From Escherichia coli (GTDB lineage Bacteria; Pseudomonadota; Gammaproteobacteria; Enterobacterales; Enterobacteriaceae): a stretch of 64,000 nucleotides of DNA. Below are positions 1,747-49,286 of the stretch, in pieces (within the stretch, counting starts at the first letter, position 1; each line of letters starts with the position of its first letter). The notes under the pieces were generated by a model. It had not been told where the DNA came from, searched no databases, and was given only the letters and a program-made list of their open reading frames with translations. Both the position numbers and the translations under genes were made by a program. The DNA is taken from assembly GCF_013315695.1 (NCBI RefSeq), contig NZ_CP054353.1, one strand, 5' to 3'.

Positions 1747-1836
1747 GGAGAGATGCCGGAGCGGCTGAACGGACCGGTCTCGAAAACCGGAGTGGGGGCA
1801 ACTCCACCGGGGGTTCAAATCCCCCTCTCTCCGCCA
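1747..1836 (+). tRNA. serU: tRNA-Ser (CGA), reconstituted at the prophage left junction
   Basis: 90-nt GGAGAGATGCCGGAGCGGCTGAACGGACCGGTCTCGAAAACCGG...TCTCTCCGCCA, long variable arm, anticodon CGA. Confidence 0.95.
1775..1836. other. attL core: 3' part of serU, direct repeat of 49225-49286
   Basis: 62-bp repeat identical to 49225-49286 except two positions in the variable arm (GTGGGGGCAACTCCAC here, GTAGGGGCAACTCTAC at attR). Confidence 0.85.
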
Positions 1837-1881
1837 AAATTCAATCACTTACACATCATTAAGTCAGTGACAAAAATCACA

Positions 1882-1914
1882 CTTGGAATTACTTGGAATA
1901 TTTTCTTGGAATAT
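1882..1914 (+). repeat. Three direct copies of CTTGGAAT(AT), putative integrase arm-type binding sites
   Basis: acttggaattacttggaatattttcttggaatatttt between the tRNA end and the int stop; the same motif recurs next to attR. Confidence 0.5.
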
Positions 1915-2914
1915 TTTCAGGTAACGGGACATCAAGTGTTGGTGAAACTTTAACCTTCCTGTCATAGATTAGCACTTGCCCTTCGGTTTTGTGACCAGAG
2001 AAAAGTTGCTTATCCCGGCTGCTTCCTTCATAGTCTGAAATTCCTTTCGCCTTCAGATCATGAAAGGTGAAGTCGGTTAAAATACCTGAAATTTTTCCAG
2101 CACGATTTCTTGCTTCTACCCACATTTCGTTAAAGCCTTTGTACATATATCGGTTGCCGTATTGATTGCTGATCACATAGGCAGATTTTGGTAACTGTTT
2201 TGCTTTTTCGATCGCTGCCTGTAATCGTGGACTCCATGCTTTTATCTGTTTTTTTCCGGTTTTCCCTTGCTGGATGAATATCCCGTCGTTTCCAATCTGT
2301 TCCCATTTCAGCGATAACACATCGGAAACCCTCGCTGCACACAGATAGGCAATTTCCATTGCGATAAAAACAGGAAGAGGTGCAACGCTTAATACTGCCT
2401 GGTATTCTTTGTCGGTTACATATCGTTCGCGGTTTTTGGCCTTGAATTTACTTACACCTGCACATGGGTTAGCCTTGACGTACCCTCGCTCATACCCCCA
2501 ACTGTAAACACGGGACATACTGCTTTTTTCATGGTTGGCTTGCGTTTTACTCTGCTCCCCTCTTTTGTCCATGTATCGACGGATGTGTTCTGGTTTTATG
2601 GAATCCGCTGGTACCTTACCGAATACGGCAAGCAACTTTTTTTGATGTTGCAGATAATCTTTTTGTGTTCTTGGACTAAGGTCACTGTAATAGGCGCTGG
2701 CGAGGAATTTTTCCCACAAGCGACCGAATGTCATTGCACGATCGCGATTATTTACAGTTTCCTCATACTTTTTCCATAAAGCAGCTAAACCATCCTTGAT
2801 GGCGGTTAGTGTGACAGATTCTCTGGATGTTGGTTTCCATACATAACTATATTTATTTGGGTATACATTTGGAGGTAATTTTTCGTGTTCAGGATTTTTC
2901 CTTCGTCTTCCCAT
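1889..2914 (-). CDS. int: Prophage tyrosine integrase, 341 aa
   Basis: Intact ORF ending 53 bp from the serU 3' end; tyrosine-recombinase-like C-terminal region. Confidence 0.9.
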   Translation of the reverse strand: MGRRRKNPEHEKLPPNVYPNKYSYVWKPTSRESVTLTAIKDGLAALWKKYEETVNNRDRAMTFGRLWEKFLASAYYSDLSPRTQKDYLQHQKKLLAVFGKVPADSIKPEHIRRYMDKRGEQSKTQANHEKSSMSRVYSWGYERGYVKANPCAGVSKFKAKNRERYVTDKEYQAVLSVAPLPVFIAMEIAYLCAARVSDVLSLKWEQIGNDGIFIQQGKTGKKQIKAWSPRLQAAIEKAKQLPKSAYVISNQYGNRYMYKGFNEMWVEARNRAGKISGILTDFTFHDLKAKGISDYEGSSRDKQLFSGHKTEGQVLIYDRKVKVSPTLDVPLPENIPRKYSK

Positions 2915-3117
2915 CAGATCGCACCAAAATTCGGCTCTACCTCGCGTGGTGGTAAAGTTTTATTGCAGGTAAATAGATCCCGGCTGACAATCGGTTTGCC
3001 ACTACGATTGGTATAGAACGGAAGCCCGTTTTCCATTAACCATTTTCGCTGGTGGCTTGCATATTTGCAGCCCGTTAATATTAGCAATTCATCTTCGGTT
3101 AAAAATAAGCTGCTCAT
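2914..3117 (-). CDS. xis: DUF4224-like small protein, putative excisionase
   Basis: 67 aa, MSSLFLTEDELLILTGCKYASHQRKWLMENG...; stop overlaps the int start; position typical of xis. Confidence 0.55.
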   Translation of the reverse strand: MSSLFLTEDELLILTGCKYASHQRKWLMENGLPFYTNRSGKPIVSRDLFTCNKTLPPREVEPNFGAI

Positions 3118-3175
3118 AGCTATATCTCATAACCGCCGCTAACTATATACGGTTAGCGGCAATTAGGGTTGAACA

Positions 3176-5617
3176 TTAAAAATCAGCCTGACTCGGGATC
3201 AGTTTTTGCCAGATAGCTGAAACGTATTTTGCCTGGTAACGAGCGTCATCAAGTGCATTATGTCGCTCACCTTCGAATGGAATAGCCGTTCTGGCATCGA
3301 AGTCTATGGCTTTCCCCAGCTCAACGATTGTGCGTACATCGCGATCGTTGTAGTAACGCCACGGGCAGGGGATCCCCTGCCGTTCGTATGAACGGCGCAA
3401 AATCGTGTTGTCGAAGTTGGCTCCATTTCCCCAAACCTGAACAAAAAATTCACCGGAGTTTTCGTCGATAAATTCCCGCAATTGTAACAGTGCATCATCT
3501 AACGGGATTTCATCGGTCATAATGGCAGATTGCGCTTCGCGTGATTGCTTAAGCCACCATTTAATGGTGTCCCGATCAATGACTCCGCCAGCAGTTTCCA
3601 GATCGATAGTCTTACTAAATTCCGGTCCCATATCTCCGGTTTGCGGATCGAAAAATATTGCACCTATTGAGATGATCGGGGCATCAGGATTTTTTCCCAT
3701 GGTTTCAAGGTCGATCATTAGATGGTCACACGTCCTGCTGGTGGATGTGATTTCGTGATGACCGTTCACCTTAATTGAGTGATCTGCCGTCTCGCCAGTT
3801 TTATTATCGCTGGCGTGATGCTGATTGCCGCCAGGGTTCTCCTTGTGTGGATGTTCAGCGCCTTCCATTTCCTCCGGATCATTTTCCTGAACTTCAACCT
3901 GATTCTCTTCATCGAATGTTTCCTGGTATGTTGCGTCGCCCATCACCGCGCCACAATCAGGGCAGTTGCCGCCACCGCTCTGACCGCAGGCGGTGCAGAC
4001 TTTTTCCGGTTCCTGTTGCGCTACTGGTTCGGATTGTTTCGTTTCTGGCTCGTTTTGTAACGCATTTGGGCTGTTTTGTTCCGCTTTTTGGTCGTTCCGT
4101 TCCGATTCATGCTGGTTCTGGTTCACAGAATCGCGAGTCTGGATCCCCTTGACCCATTTCGGATCATTAGGGTCGCTAATCCCCTCAACAAATTCACCAC
4201 GCGATACAGCAAGTAACTTATCGGCGTCAGGCTGGCTGATATTGGCTGCCTGCATAATTTTGTTTGCTTCGTCAGCGGTGACTTTTACTTGGTTAGCGGA
4301 ACTCACCTGCGACTGAGCATCCAGCGACTGCGCGTTCTGGCCATGTTCAGTTGTATCCGGTTCCATTGTTTCAGTTGTTGCCTGTTCACCTGCCATTGCG
4401 TCAGATGGTTGTGGTTTTTCTTCTTCTGTTTCACGCTCAGTAACCACCTCGCGGTTAATTTCTTCCAGGATATCTTTTTCCGGCGTATGCCGGGCAGCTG
4501 TGAGAGTTTCCTTGCTGGGGTTCTCGTGATCAGTTTCCGTCAAATAGGCGTTGATATACCCCTGAAGGCGTCCCGGGTAGTGATAAAATTCAGGGTGTGC
4601 GCTTCGGATAAGTGCAAAAATAGCGGCGCGGGAATAGTCCAGAATACCCGGGGTTGCACGAAGTGCTGCGGACCATTCTTTGAACGGACTTTCTTTGTTC
4701 AGGACTACTTCTTTTGCGCGACGATAAACGCTGCCCGGAATTTCATAAATATTAAAATCCATCGGAAGTGTGGCTGCTGCAATCTCCACATCCAGTGTGT
4801 CGAGGGTGTGTACTAAATTCGGATTGCGATCGGTTTTGTTCCCACCGCCAGCATTAGCACCGGAAGCCGTGCGGGTGATGCGTGAAACACGATTTCCTTT
4901 CATCCACTCTTTTGTCAGCAGACCCCGATCAGTGTAGTCAGCGTCCAGGTATGCTTCGAAAAAAGCAGTTATTAGTCCCAGGTCTGAATTACCAGGATTA
5001 GGGAAAACTTTGTCAGTGTCACGAACCAGTTTGTGGAGGTCGCGAATCTCCAGCGAGTCGAGCAGACTGGTTTTATGCGAAATAGCCAGGGCAGTAACAG
5101 CCGGTAGTTCTTCAGCCCGTGCAATGTGTAATGCCTGGAGTTCGTCGCGTGAAACGTGCGTTACTGGTTTTTCGCTGCCGTGTTGAGCAAGCCAACGAAT
5201 GGGCAGTTCCTGACCGGAGACAGGCAGAAGCATGCTCTCCTCAATCTCAGTCATGTCTTCGCCGTTGATGTTGGTATTGTCAGTGCTGGCTGGTTTGTCC
5301 TGAACAGAGGGGGAAGGGCCGATAAATGTCATTGTGATGCCATCTTTCCCGCCTTTTTCATAGCGGTTGCAGAATTCAGTATCAAACACGCCTTCTGGCG
5401 GAAGGTCGTCAACAACGGGCAAATTGACGCGGACGGGTTTTTTAAAGTCGTCTTCATCATAATCGTTGTCATCCATTGCGGTAATGCAGCGGGAGATTGC
5501 AACAGATAATTTTTTTGCTGTAGCCCAGTAAAAACCACCTTTAATTCCCAGGCGTTTTCTTACTTTGTCATTTTTTGCTTCGCAATATAGTGCAAATTCT
5601 TCTTTATCAGTGCTCAT
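3176..5617 (-). CDS. Large early protein with C-terminal DEDDh (DnaQ-like) 3'-5' exonuclease domain and central zinc ribbon; probable full-length YdfE-type protein
   Basis: 813 aa; C-terminus has MIDLETMG (Exo I), [11 protein letters not shown] (Exo II), HNALDDARY (Exo III); central [16 protein letters not shown]. Confidence 0.75.
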
Positions 5618-48578: not shown

Positions 48579-48587
48579 GGATAGCAG

Positions 48588-48875
48588 ATGGATATCACGT
48601 CGATACTTCATGCGCTTTGTGCCGTAGCGGTGCAGGTACTGGCTGGTCTTTTTACCGGAAACTGGGCTTACGGTGCGATAGCCGGTTGTACGTTCTTCAT
48701 TGCGCGTGAACACACCCAGGCAGAATATCGCTGGATTGAAATGTTTGGGCATGGCAAGAGGATTAACATGCCGTGGTGGGGCGGTTTTGATCCGCGCGTG
48801 TGGGATGTGGCAAGCCTGATGGATTTTGCTGTGCCGGTGGTGGCGTGTCTGCTGATCTGGATGTTGATCCGTTAA
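48588..48875 (+). CDS. Hypothetical membrane protein, 95 aa, last prophage gene before attR
   Basis: MDITSILHALCAVAVQVLAGLFTGNWAYGAIAGCTFFIAREH...; two or three hydrophobic segments. Confidence 0.5.
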   Translation: MDITSILHALCAVAVQVLAGLFTGNWAYGAIAGCTFFIAREHTQAEYRWIEMFGHGKRINMPWWGGFDPRVWDVASLMDFAVPVVACLLIWMLIR

Positions 48876-49112
48876 ATATAAAAAGTAAAAAGCCGCAGTA
48901 ACTTGTCATGACAGGATACTGCGGCTGGCTGGTTAACTTTCGATAGTGCGAGTATTGAATGATTTCCAGCTGTTACTGATTTTATATAACTGCAGTGGAA
49001 TTATTCAACACACAGGCAAAACGGAATAAGCTGAGAAAAAAAGCGTGCTTTCCCAATCTGGGGTAAATCACATCTGAATGACACCTGAAAACAGGTGGTG
49101 GCCTCAAGAAGG

Positions 49113-49185
49113 CTTGGAATATTCTTCTTTAATGTTATGTAATTTATTGATTTTTCGTGTACGATTTTAAGACATTTATTCCAAG
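49113..49185. repeat. CTTGGAATAT arm-type motif copies flanking attR (one direct, one inverted)
   Basis: cttggaatat at 49113-49122 and attccaag at 49178-49185; same motif as 1882-1914. Confidence 0.45.
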
Positions 49186-49224
49186 AAAAATTTTTAACTC
49201 TTTGATTTTTCGACTCTGTATCAT

Positions 49225-49286
49225 CGGTCTCGAAAACCGGAGTAGGGGCAACTCTACCGGGGGTTCAAATCCCCCTCTCTCCGCCA
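49225..49286. other. attR core: displaced original 3' part of serU
   Basis: CGGTCTCGAAAACCGGAGTAGGGGCAACTCTACCGGGGGTTCAAATCCCCCTCTCTCCGCCA, no 5' half of the tRNA upstream. Confidence 0.85.

Follow-up and report, generated by a model that had tools for sequence, protein, structure and literature searches.

A serU prophage of Escherichia coli with Qin-like early genes and a late region in lambda order

By long-standing description, Qin of Escherichia coli K-12 is a defective lambdoid prophage. In this system DicA and DicC are the analogues of repressor and Cro, dicBp is a PL-like promoter and Rem is the DicA antirepressor (PMC10448788), while DicF represses ftsZ and DicB works via MinC (PMC5069750, PMC6832061). 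The dicBF genes were reported in 2016 in the lambdoid prophages CP-933O/M/P (PMC5069750), followed in 2023 by dicB, dicF, dicAC and rem in the functional phage mEp460_ev081 (PMC10448788).

The window analysed here, 64,000 nucleotides of the E. coli contig NZ_CP054353.1, contains a single prophage of about 47.45 kb, starting directly 3' of serU (tRNA-Ser, 1747-1836), the host attachment gene. Its boundaries are exact 31-bp direct repeats: the attL core (1806-1836) is the 3' end of serU and is duplicated as the attR core at 49256-49286, after which zinT (49956-50606) is the first named host gene. A previous sequence-only reading had placed the element at 1836-49225; the element was confirmed, but this end falls about 60 bp short of attR. 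The gene order is canonical for lambdoid phages (int-xis-exo, PL operon, repressor/cro, replication, nin-like block, Q, lysis, cos, head, tail). We consider the region to be one lambdoid (lambda-supercluster) temperate prophage, a recombinant patchwork that a tyrosine integrase inserted at the serU 3' end, with a probability of about 0.92.

The same reading had proposed one prophage whose early half resembles Qin and whose late half follows the lambda gene order, and the alignments to lambda and K-12 Qin bore this out, with E-values of 0 or far below chance. In tblastn with all lambda proteins, the 22 of 22 lambda genes from nu1 to stf were colinear, as had been claimed for cos through stf: nu1, A, W, B, C, D, E, FI, FII, Z, U, V, G, T, H, M, L, K, I, J, lom and the N-terminus (115 aa) of stf matched between 26158 and 46587 at 28-86% aa identity, and blastn was colinear from 26580 to 46628 at 66-77% nt. 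The only other lambda genes matched were int (23% aa), ea22, ren (weakly), Q (31% aa) and Rz/Rz1 (69/67% aa); neither lambda N nor phage 21 N had a match, and no N-like antiterminator was recognised. The claimed resemblance to Qin is close only for ydfC-dicF-dicB-ydfD (97.6% nt, 5626-6873) and hokD-rem-ydfU (89.7% nt, 13989-16019) and fails in case of Q, which has 40% aa identity to YdfT and no nucleotide match. The dicA/dicC/ydfX region lies at 72% nt (DicC 83%, YdfX 89% aa in tblastn; DicA is treated below), and essQ and rrrQ are matched at 79% and 89% aa. "Lambda-type morphogenesis" is right for the gene order and too coarse for the alleles, since the head genes are those of phage 21, the tail is about equally distant from both phages and nu1 is of a third type. 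The family assignments were in this respect broader than the alignments allow, as these revealed other alleles. Identity to Qin, lambda and phage 21 shifts abruptly at the module boundaries.

On the minus strand, the integration module (1889-3117) consists of a tyrosine integrase gene (1889-2914, 341 aa) and a DUF4224 excisionase-like gene (2914-3117), as classified by Pfam (Phage_integrase, DUF4224) and PHROG (integrase, excisionase). The integrase ORF keeps the tyrosine motif GHK...IYDRK; in other strains, genes 100% and 99.6% identical to it are marked as frameshifted by PGAP. Next on the same strand is an 813-aa exonuclease gene (3176-5617) with an Exonuc_VIII N-terminal part and an Rv2179c-like 3'-5' exonuclease domain (Pfam, PHROG), which did not match the ydfE pseudogene of Qin. 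The dicBF (PL) operon (5711-6873, minus strand) comprises ydfC (6655-6873), dicF (6262-6313; 76.7 bits in Rfam), dicB (5899-6087) and ydfD (5711-5902), the products being 96% (YdfC), 100% (DicB) and 95% (YdfD) identical to those of K-12 Qin. The GenBank phages Tritos, PhiR42_1, vB_EcoS-813R8 and vB_EcoS-640R1 have the dicBF locus at 97-98%.

The immunity region (7316-8724) contains dicBp/OL (about 7316-7473), a short DicA-family repressor gene (7474-7881, minus strand), OR, a cro of the DicC/P22-Cro type (7962-8189, plus) and a YdaT/CII-like gene (8173-8724, plus); TTAGA..TCTAA palindromes flank the repressor gene on both sides. Identity of the repressor to DicA is 55% in a global alignment and 57% in tblastn, and its identity to the repressor of the otherwise 99.7%-identical MSB1_4I prophage is 50%; the cassette is a DicA-family allele of its own. 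The replication genes and nin-equivalent block (8696-13444, plus strand) were named by Pfam, PHROG and PGAP names from MSB1_4I. An O-like/DnaT-domain gene (8696-9736) and P (9729-10190) are followed by genes mostly of unknown function (DUF1627, DUF977, DUF4406, Ea22-like, DUF7167, hypothetical genes); the whole block is deleted in Qin. Next on the plus strand (13834-16019) are hok/sok (13834-14158; sok 106.7 bits in Rfam), rem (14375-14626), a 92-aa ORF and ydfU/DUF968 (14973-16019), with HokD, Rem and YdfU 100%, 93% and 85% identical to Qin. No LexA box was found upstream of rem.

The rusA gene (16032-16406), antiterminator gene Q (16403-17224, 273 aa) and a tR'-like terminator (17305-17324) are on the plus strand. 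Q belongs to Pfam Antiterm (PF03589, E 2e-54) and gave no match to phage 21 Q; judged from its sequence, it is a distinct allele, Qin-like at the Pfam family level only. Its distance from the holin gene is 4.5 kb versus 0.7 kb in lambda. The intervening moron block (17368-21706, mixed strands) matches the layout of the moron site located downstream of PR' in Stx and EHEC prophages (PMC4104026). It contains two tRNAs (anticodon CAT, tRNA-Ile according to PGAP, and tRNA-Arg(UCU)), DUF3927 (18120-18251), the STnc100 sRNA (18317-18506, plus), an IraM homologue (18532-18867, minus; E 2e-32 to PDB 8twd), a NanS-p-type SASA esterase (19113-21089), a candidate convergent sRNA (about 21092-21187, minus) with a terminator hairpin and a fold z-score of -3.05, DUF1378 (21241-21423) and DUF826 (21461-21706). 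The candidate sRNA shares promoter and terminator with the MSB1_4I allele, the bodies being unrelated.

The lysis cassette (21783-24418, plus strand) is itself a mosaic. A class II holin (21783-21998, 79% aa to both EssQ and S21) is followed by a 297-aa DUF1327/YdfR-family gene (22000-22893), a lysozyme (22930-23463, 89% aa to RrrQ) whose hydrophobic N-terminus suggests a SAR endolysin, two small ORFs (23620-23802, 23799-23948) and Rz/Rz1 (23945-24418 and 24171-24356; 84% nt to lambda), which did not match RzpQ of Qin. Extra ORFs lie on both sides of R, separating it from S and from Rz, and PHROGs 1085, 1115 and 4906, matched in the cassette, are all of unknown function. The 1.4 kb between Rz and cos, thought earlier to be cargo, is the phage 21 right end (24429-25830, plus; 98.5% nt to phage 21 positions 41542-42931), where a TonB_C lipoprotein (gene 24729-25055), hyp72 and hyp74 are 100% identical to the phage 21 proteins. 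The cosN site (25819-25830) has the exact lambda cohesive-end sequence GGGCGGCGACCT, and three copies of the repeat CCGGACATG (25860-25975) may represent cosB sites. The terminase genes (26014-28412, plus) begin with nu1 (26014-26523), of a non-lambda, non-21 type (40% aa identity, in the C-terminal part only); the large subunit starts at 26495.

The head genes W, B, C/nu3, D, E, FI and FII (28396-33937, plus) are phage 21 alleles: the stretch 26577-33329 has 94.4% nt identity to phage 21 (W, B, C 98%, D, E 95%, FII 91%, FI only 42% aa), and genes A-E have 94% nt identity to phage 21 versus 66-68% to lambda (28-70% aa across 28396-33937). The tail genes Z, U, V, G, T, H, M, L, K and I (33953-41469, plus), with the G-T slippery heptamer GGGAAAG at 36100-36106, have about 77% nt identity to both lambda and phage 21 and 94-96% identity to ECOR-induced PhiR phages; these alignments make the tail a third, lambda-like allele. 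The I-J spacer of 343 bp (60 bp in lambda) had been read as cargo; it holds, instead of a protein gene, a PasB-family sRNA gene (41476-41573, minus strand) antisense to the late operon, with a promoter TTCACA-16-TATAAT (41607-41580) and a terminator (41501-41485) followed by a T-run. This gene agrees with nucleotides 1-20 of the 23-nt probe used for PasB in Northern blots and with the PasB locus of E2348/69, likewise between I and J, is covered by a six-allele alignment, and has no family match in Rfam. A bidirectional terminator hairpin (41682-41716) lies in the rest of the spacer (41635-41812). The block from J to the end (41813-48875, plus) consists of J (41813-45505; 57% aa to lambda, 65% to phage 21), the lom moron (45573-46172; Pfam Ail_Lom, 44% aa) flanked by terminators (45524-45543, 46199-46220), a side tail fibre (46231-48303) similar to that of phage 21, and two small ORFs (48300-48578, 48588-48875) which replace tfa and are the counterparts of CPT_21_23 and CPT_21_24 of phage 21 (64%, 87% aa; PHROGs 1361, 1443).

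Extra DNA was indeed present at all five junctions named before (after Q, lysis cassette, Rz-cos, I-J, after stf). The view that undescribed genes concentrate there did not hold, since the P-to-Q stretch has as many function-unknown genes. All junction protein ORFs scanned, with the exception of one doubtful 83-aa ORF, fall within existing Pfam DUF or PHROG families, and several have annotated phage 21 counterparts at 64-100% identity.

Comparison of gene content across serU prophages, proposed in that reading, gave a direct view of modular exchange. The whole element was found at serU, at 99.3-99.7% identity, in the independent complete genomes MSB1_4I, AVS0196, AVS0790, N10, LC-1302-2020 and SB0258h1, and in the MSB1_4I copy the differences are confined to the immunity cassette (7389-8048) and a 106-bp sRNA body. 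The MMC-J-0105 copy is 99-100% identical up to a breakpoint at about 15,500, just upstream of the rusA-Q block, and continues with another Q and an HK97-type head; EC21GDE043 shares the int-exo-dicB block, combined there with Rac-type immunity/replication genes and an HK97-type head. Among 5426 genomes the serU-int-xis junction occurs in 1093, the late half in 613, the immunity allele in 565 and the early half in 8.

Could the two halves be two adjacent elements, a Qin-like cryptic remnant beside an independent lambda/21-like prophage? K-12 Qin survives without heads or tails, and CP-933O of O157 was reported as a fusion of two prophages (PMC5069750). However, the att repeats form a single pair, and integrase, immunity region, Q, lysis cassette and cos are each present once. 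The genes are arranged as in one circularly permuted lambdoid genome, and the late half lacks early genes of its own. At about 47.45 kb, the prophage is nearly as long as the lambda genome (48.5 kb) and should fit into a lambda-type head. Since no internal att-like repeat, second integrase or second repressor was found within the prophage, two elements are highly improbable and essentially refuted. Repeats such as similar prophages are a classic cause of misassembly, and E. coli genomes hold several of them (median 3-4 matching places per genome), so that the joint might have been a chimera of the contig; the same complete arrangement in the six independently assembled genomes leaves this almost no probability.

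The single prophage might also be fully functional and inducible, its terminase and integrase lesions being sequencing errors or tolerated variants. The remaining genes are all intact, the Int ORF has its catalytic tyrosine motif, and close relatives of both the late (PhiR, 94-96%) and the early region (vB_EcoS-640R1, mEp460, Tritos) were isolated as phages. Alignment with the intact MSB1_4I gene, however, revealed an 11-bp frameshifting deletion after 27898 in the large terminase gene, atypical of a homopolymer sequencing error, which leaves gpA with 468 of its roughly 642 residues before the truncation. Lambda cannot package DNA without gpA. Full function is therefore unlikely, and because of this deletion the copy is probably defective; it probably still represses and perhaps excises, and probably does not package DNA.

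Reasoning by analogy from lambda and from Qin genetics, we expect the short DicA-type repressor to silence PL (dicBp) and PR. As it has no RecA cleavage site, repression would be relieved by a Rem-type antirepressor; we infer that Rem may act on this repressor allele. On relief PL would transcribe ydfC-dicF-dicB-ydfD-exo-xis-int, and DicF and DicB would block host division, as a counterpart of kil at the same position in lambda. PR would drive cro, replication and Q, and Q would antiterminate PR' into the lysis and morphogenesis genes. Autonomous morons between the conserved modules (hok/sok, tRNAs, STnc100, iraM, nanS-p esterase, convergent sRNA, TonB_C lipoprotein gene, PasB-like sRNA, lom) would be expressed from the lysogen; several have promoter-like or terminator signals of their own or lie on the opposite strand. 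Nothing contradicts the lambdoid reading, the functions being predicted.

Since the PL-side operon carries dicF and dicB, their membership of the lambdoid temperate-phage gene pool, as the sequence-only reading had it, is supported; it was already published, and the link to a lambda-type virion is not obligatory, because this early region is followed in MMC-J-0105 by an HK97-type head. The prophage is real and ordinary, a typical lambda-family patchwork of a kind already documented, as is the presence of DicB/DicF in such phages, and its modules circulate independently among E. coli prophages.

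The window carries a lambdoid prophage of about 47.45 kb in the tRNA-Ser gene serU (1747-1836), flanked by two identical 31-bp copies of the serU 3' end in direct orientation (1806-1836 and 49256-49286). A sequence-only reading had placed the element at 1836-49225; its start stands, and its end lies about 60 bp short of attR as defined by the 31-bp repeat. To the left are the host genes asnT (680-755) and, between asnT and serU, mtfA; to the right are host zinT, msrQP, hiuH, hprRS and hchA and the host sRNA gene rseX. The latter (58113-58203, minus strand; Rfam, 90.8 bits) lies downstream of a porin gene and is unrelated to the prophage. 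The 5' part of a further tyrosine integrase gene adjoins asnT at 1-518 on the minus strand, which indicates a second island at asnT, just outside the window. The entire prophage was found again at serU, at 99.3-99.7% identity, in several complete genomes that had been assembled independently, among them MSB1_4I, AVS0196 and AVS0790. It is therefore not an assembly artefact, and the misassembly reading was rejected on this ground; a reading as tandem elements was also weighed and rejected.

The genes were assigned from an ORF map with Pfam, PHROG and tblastn against lambda, K-12 Qin and phage 21, the names being guided by the PGAP annotation of strain MSB1_4I. The order obtained (int-xis-recombination, PL, repressor, PR-cro, replication, nin region, Q, lysis, cos, head, tail) is the lambdoid one and is shared with lambda as a whole. 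In the late region tblastn recovered nu1, A, W, B, C, D, E, FI, FII, Z, U, V, G, T, H, M, L, K, I, J, lom and the N-terminal 115 residues of stf at 28-86% amino acid identity, that is, 22 morphogenesis genes from nu1 to stf in an order identical to that of lambda. As in lambda, lom is a moron following J with terminators on both sides. The lambda cosN sequence GGGCGGCGACCT is present exactly at 25819-25830 and the G-T slippery site GGGAAAG at 36100-36106. Packaging is of the cos type, with a Pfam Phage_Nu1 match and a gpA homologue 68% identical in amino acids to that of lambda, which is frameshifted in this copy. In the structural genes, however, the colinear blastn similarity to lambda (26580-46628) reaches just 66-77% at the nucleotide level. 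The other lambda matches were restricted to int (23%), ea22, a weak ren match, Q (31%) and Rz/Rz1 (69/67% amino acid and 84% nucleotide identity), and no match to lambda N, cI, cro, cII, O, P, exo/bet/gam, kil, the nin genes, S or R was detected in the window. In addition, dicBF occupies the position of kil, and the repressor, unlike that of lambda, has no LexA-like cleavage domain.

In the phage collection the late half proved to be nearer to phage 21 (85% nucleotide identity over 70% of the query) and to the ECOR-induced PhiR phages (94-96%) than to lambda. Phage 21 was compared gene by gene using its annotated genome (OL657228, genus Jouyvirus). The head genes A-E (26577-33329, 6.8 kb) are 94.4% identical to those of phage 21 in nucleotides and 89-98% in amino acids, with W, B and C at 98%, and the 1.4 kb stretch from Rz to cos (24429-25818) is 98.5% identical, its TonB_C protein being the same. 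The two small ORFs behind stf are the counterparts of CPT_21_23 and CPT_21_24 (64% and 87% amino acid identity), so that the arrangement of stf, a 92-aa ORF and a membrane ORF, with tfa absent, is common to both phages, as is the class II holin (79% amino acid identity). The tail genes Z-I are about 77% identical in nucleotides to lambda and to phage 21 alike, and FI, J and stf show 42%, 65% and 59% amino acid identity to phage 21. Phage 21 differs in having no lom and no insert between I and J, in its nu1 and presumably its cosB, and in its integration at icd; its N, cI, cro, O, P, nin genes and Q are missing from the window, and the whole early region is different. Between cosN and gene A, nu1 included (25819-26576), no nucleotide similarity to phage 21 was found, and hence neither was its packaging specificity; Nu1 is 40% identical to the phage 21 protein in its C-terminal part only. 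The Nu1 type (26014-26523) differs from those of both lambda and phage 21, yet cosN/cosQ and gene A, which flank it, are 21-like. A CCGGACATG repeat that occurs three times between cosN and nu1 (25860-25975) may represent the matching cosB sites.

The similarity of the early region to K-12 Qin is confined to blocks. The ydfC-dicF-dicB-ydfD operon, situated downstream of a PL-like promoter, is 97.6% identical to Qin in nucleotides; DicB is 100% identical, DicF scores 76.7 bits in Rfam against a gathering score of 48, and the dicBp stretch is kept at 96.7% over 61 bp. The hokD-rem-ydfU block follows with 89.7% (HokD 100%, Rem 93% and YdfU 85% in amino acids), the dicA/dicC/ydfX region with 72% nucleotide identity, and essQ and rrrQ with 79% and 89% amino acid identity. 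An Rfam sok-family match is found at 13834-14158, directly upstream of hokD. Since the similarity to Qin starts only at 13989, just ahead of hokD, Qin is without this sok region and has relBE there instead. No LexA box (CTGT-N8-ACAG) was present upstream of rem; the sole two matches lie elsewhere and are at chance level. The ydfA/ydfB, relBE and csp genes and the IS of Qin are all missing from the element, which sits at serU and not at the Qin site; it retains int/xis, the replication genes and all head and tail genes, which Qin has lost, and a full ydaT-like gene, of which ydfX of Qin is a fragment.

The immunity layout is of the DicA/DicC type, as in Qin. The repressor is a short DicA-type protein (135 aa, HTH_3, no Ala-Gly cleavage domain) that is 55-57% identical to DicA, and its gene diverges from a DicC/P22-Cro-type gene (P22_Cro Pfam match; 82-83% identical to DicC). 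Judged from these sequences, the repressor/cro pair belongs to the DicA/DicC type at the family level only and is an allele of different specificity. Given the 55-57% identity of the repressor to DicA, the phage is probably heteroimmune relative to Qin.

Q is a member of the Antiterm family (PF03589, E 2e-54), with a terminator downstream at 17305-17324. Unlike in Qin, rusA is inserted before it, and its product is 40% identical to YdfT with no DNA-level match to Qin, so that what it shares with a Qin-type Q is the Pfam family; by this comparison it is a distinct allele within Antiterm. Neither a PR' promoter nor a Q-binding element was located in the prophage. Mosaicism extends to the lysis cassette, in which the holin and the lysozyme are Qin-like (the holin equally 21-like), and Rz/Rz1 are lambda-like and not RzpQ-like, no match to rzpQ being present in the window. 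The order holin-YdfR-lysozyme is that of Qin, which has ydfR at the place of a 297-aa DUF1327/YdfR-family gene in the window (full-length PHROG 1085); two small ORFs (PHROGs 1115 and 4906) are further cargo of this cassette. The 297-aa DUF1327 protein and the 92-aa ORF behind stf gave no match in a sequence search of solved structures.

These alignments to lambda and Qin showed that the sequence-only reading, which joined a Qin-type early region to late genes following lambda gene for gene, had used families that were in part too coarse. The Qin-like early region was confirmed for the dicBF and hok-rem-ydfU blocks and not for Q, and for the stretch from cos to stf the gene order of lambda was borne out by tblastn but its identity was not, the head genes being phage 21 alleles.

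The exchange of modules could be seen directly by comparing related prophages at serU, as that reading had suggested. The MSB1_4I element is 99.7% identical to this copy except at 7389-8048 and 21107-21214. The former, the sole large difference, corresponds to the repressor/cro cassette. Identity is 50% between the two repressors and about 55% between either one and DicA; all three are 135-aa DicA-type proteins, and the cro genes of the two prophages have their 3' halves in common; thus three immunity specificities occur on one backbone. In strain MMC-J-0105, which carries the immunity allele of the window (positions 1-16341 of its serU locus against 32-16369 of the window) the identity is 99-100% from the host flank to approximately 15,500, inside ydfU. 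Beyond this point its rusA-Q and its lysis cassette are different, four tRNAs are present and the head is of the HK97 type with a P27-family terminase, and approximately 15,500 is a clean recombination breakpoint between the two. The serU prophage of EC21GDE043 shares int-xis-exo-dicB-ydfC with the window at 97.5-98.4%; its immunity is of the RacR/YdaS/YdaT kind, its replication genes are YdaU/V and its head is HK97-type. Among 5426 complete E. coli genomes the serU-int junction was found in 1093, the late half in 613, the immunity allele of the window in 565 and the complete early half in 8. Since modules are swapped in this manner, the dicBF module belongs to the general lambdoid gene pool and is not bound to lambda-type virions. 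The assignment of DicB/DicF to a lambda-like phage lineage therefore holds as far as the gene pool is concerned, and a link to the lambda-type particle is not obligatory, in view of the HK97-type heads of MMC-J-0105 and EC21GDE043.

Between Q and the holin (17224-21783) a tR'-like terminator, two tRNAs, DUF3927, STnc100, an IraM homologue, a NanS-p-type SASA esterase, DUF1378 and DUF826 follow each other. The tRNA with anticodon CAT is tRNA-Met according to ARAGORN and tRNA-Ile according to PGAP. The STnc100 sRNA (plus strand, 132 bits) and the convergent IraM homologue (minus strand, E 2e-32 to PDB 8twd) lie within 18317-18867, and PasD2 of EPEC E2348/69 matches just 42 nt of the STnc100 locus. 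The GC content is 41.7% at 17700-18900 and 52-62% in the structural genes. The IraM homologue could contribute to lysogenic conversion via RpoS stabilisation. Stx-converting phages and the O157 Sp and CP-933 prophages have the same order (Q, tR', ileZ/arg tRNAs, moron, sRNAs, nanS-p esterase, convergent sRNA, DUF1378, DUF826, holin), and published accounts of EHEC lambdoid prophages give this PR' moron layout (PMC4104026; Zhu et al. 2026 preprint). The window differs from the Stx phages in the absence of stx, at the position of which DUF3927, STnc100 and the IraM homologue are found.

On the minus strand right after the esterase stop, between nanS-p and DUF1378 (about 21092-21187), a candidate convergent sRNA was noticed, consisting of a promoter-like TTGACA-17-TAGAAA, a body of about 70 nt and a terminator (CCGCCAGC...GCTGGCGGC-T7). 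In MSB1_4I the promoter and terminator are the same but the body between them is unrelated, and the candidate fits the 'convergent sRNA' of Tree et al., which is conserved at its 3' end and variable at its 5' end. The allele of the window is rare (69 of the 5426 genomes, always between the esterase and DUF1378) and gave no match in the phage collection.

The spacer between I and J is 343 bp long, while lambda and phage 21 each have 60 bp there, and no credible ORF was found in it; a 113-aa ORF at 41491-41832 was rejected, since it traverses two terminator hairpins and overlaps the J start. A sigma-70 promoter match at 11/12 positions (41607-41580) and, with a T-run behind it, an intrinsic terminator (41501-41485) lie on its minus strand, and the spacer holds the first 20 nt of the 23-nt PasB Northern probe. 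PasB is an Hfq-dependent 83-nt sRNA of prophage PP6 of EPEC E2348/69, where it was detected experimentally (PMC8550237, supplement). It lies likewise between I and J, antisense to the late operon, with the promoter and the 3' terminator arm conserved, whereas the RNA body has diverged to the extent that blastn keeps only the 25-nt terminator. Six PasB-family alleles could be aligned over about 175 bp including promoter and flanks (87% mean column identity), the promoter, the 5' end, the pre-terminator stretch and the 3' terminator arm being conserved, and the same synteny was seen in five other genomes. By promoter, terminator, synteny and probe match, 41476-41573 (minus strand) is a predicted sRNA gene of the PasB family. 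The locus occurs in 1847 of the 5426 genomes, that is, in a third, in several allelic classes, and was unannotated in all 25 records listed. No homologue of PasA of E2348/69 was found in the window. The second half of the spacer (41635-41812) contains a strong bidirectional terminator hairpin (41682-41716) and is common only to the PPompW-type phages (90.7%); PhiR5_1 and the Stx2c phages listed have the first half only.

Rfam searches at permissive E-values gave no credible family for either spacer. It may be, and we put it at only about three chances in ten, that the nanS-p/DUF1378 and I-J spacers both encode unannotated sRNAs with promoter and terminator kept and the body, where target pairing would occur, swapped as 'seed cassettes', a unit of lambdoid mosaicism like the immunity cassettes, and that the nanS-p allele is a new anti-sRNA-type regulator.

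By its sequence features the junction cargo qualifies as morons in the sense of Juhala et al. (2000): lom lies between terminators, iraM and the PasB-like gene are oriented in the opposite direction, the latter with its own promoter match and terminator, and the GC content deviates. Cargo is present at the junctions, where undescribed genes had been expected to concentrate, but, bar one doubtful 83-aa ORF, each scanned junction protein ORF falls into an existing Pfam DUF or PHROG family. Such genes are thus already catalogued, though without an assigned function, and genes of unknown function are as numerous between P and Q (10206-14971). The 83-aa ORF (25419-25670, minus strand), which has a signal-like N-terminus, was not counted as a gene, since it has no Pfam or PHROG match and phage 21 has a plus-strand ORF annotated there.

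Relative to MSB1_4I, the gene of the terminase large subunit (26495-28412) lacks 11 bp after 27898 (ATCGATGGCGA), a deletion that puts it out of frame beyond residue 468. Because of this frameshift in the gpA homologue, packaging is probably lost and this copy is probably packaging-defective; the deletion argues against viable phage arising from it. The integrase gene (1889-2914, minus strand) is flagged as 'frameshifted' by PGAP in all the relatives inspected, one of which has a copy with 100% DNA identity; its 341-aa ORF keeps the GHK...IYDRK tyrosine motif, and the flag may be an annotation artefact at the C-terminus.

The working of the prophage we infer from the genetics of lambda and Qin. 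TTAGA..TCTAA palindromes, putative operators, are found on both sides of the repressor gene, and through these the DicA-family repressor would repress PL (dicBp) and PR. Since the repressor has no RecA cleavage site, relief would depend on the Rem antirepressor, encoded 6.5 kb away. Rem relieves DicA in K-12 (PMC10448788), and by analogy the Rem of the window would relieve the repressor allele of the window. PL would then transcribe ydfC-dicF-dicB-ydfD-exo-xis-int. DicF, the target of which is the ftsZ mRNA, and DicB, acting by MinC/ZipA, block division (PMC5069750, PMC6832061), and here they would do so in the role and position of lambda kil. From PR, cro, the CII-like YdaT gene, O/P and Q would be expressed, and antitermination by Q at tR' would carry transcription on into the lysis and morphogenesis genes.

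Qin is known as a defective lambdoid prophage, and dicBF was found in the lambdoid prophages CP-933O/M/P and in none of the phage genomes then in databases (Balasubramanian et al. 2016, PMC5069750). Later, attention was drawn to the functional phage mEp460_ev081, which has dicB, dicF, dicAC and rem (Ragunathan et al. 2023, PMC10448788). This phage, Tritos, PhiR42_1, vB_EcoS-813R8 and vB_EcoS-640R1 share exo-ydfD-dicB-dicF-ydfC with the window at 94-98% nucleotide identity, the locus being at 97-98% in the GenBank entries of Tritos (DicF annotated), PhiR42_1 and the vB_EcoS phages. Such dicBF phages match the early half at 95% over at most 47% of its length, but differ in the late region and in much of the early-right region, and none covers at least 80% of either half. 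Lambdoid mosaicism with junction morons has been textbook matter since HK97/HK022 (Juhala 2000, as cited in PMC4104026). A mosaic lambdoid prophage with dicBF is real, ordinary and already known. The remaining novelty is small and lies in the unannotated sRNA alleles; these loci are the only mildly useful by-products, and the significance goes little beyond bookkeeping. The element is nevertheless a clean teaching example: with MSB1_4I and MMC-J-0105 it makes up three near-isogenic serU prophages that are single module swaps apart, namely the immunity cassette, an sRNA body and everything downstream of ydfU. It also probably shows the form that the deleted parts of Qin had, with a full ydaT-like gene, replication genes, a sok region and int/xis.
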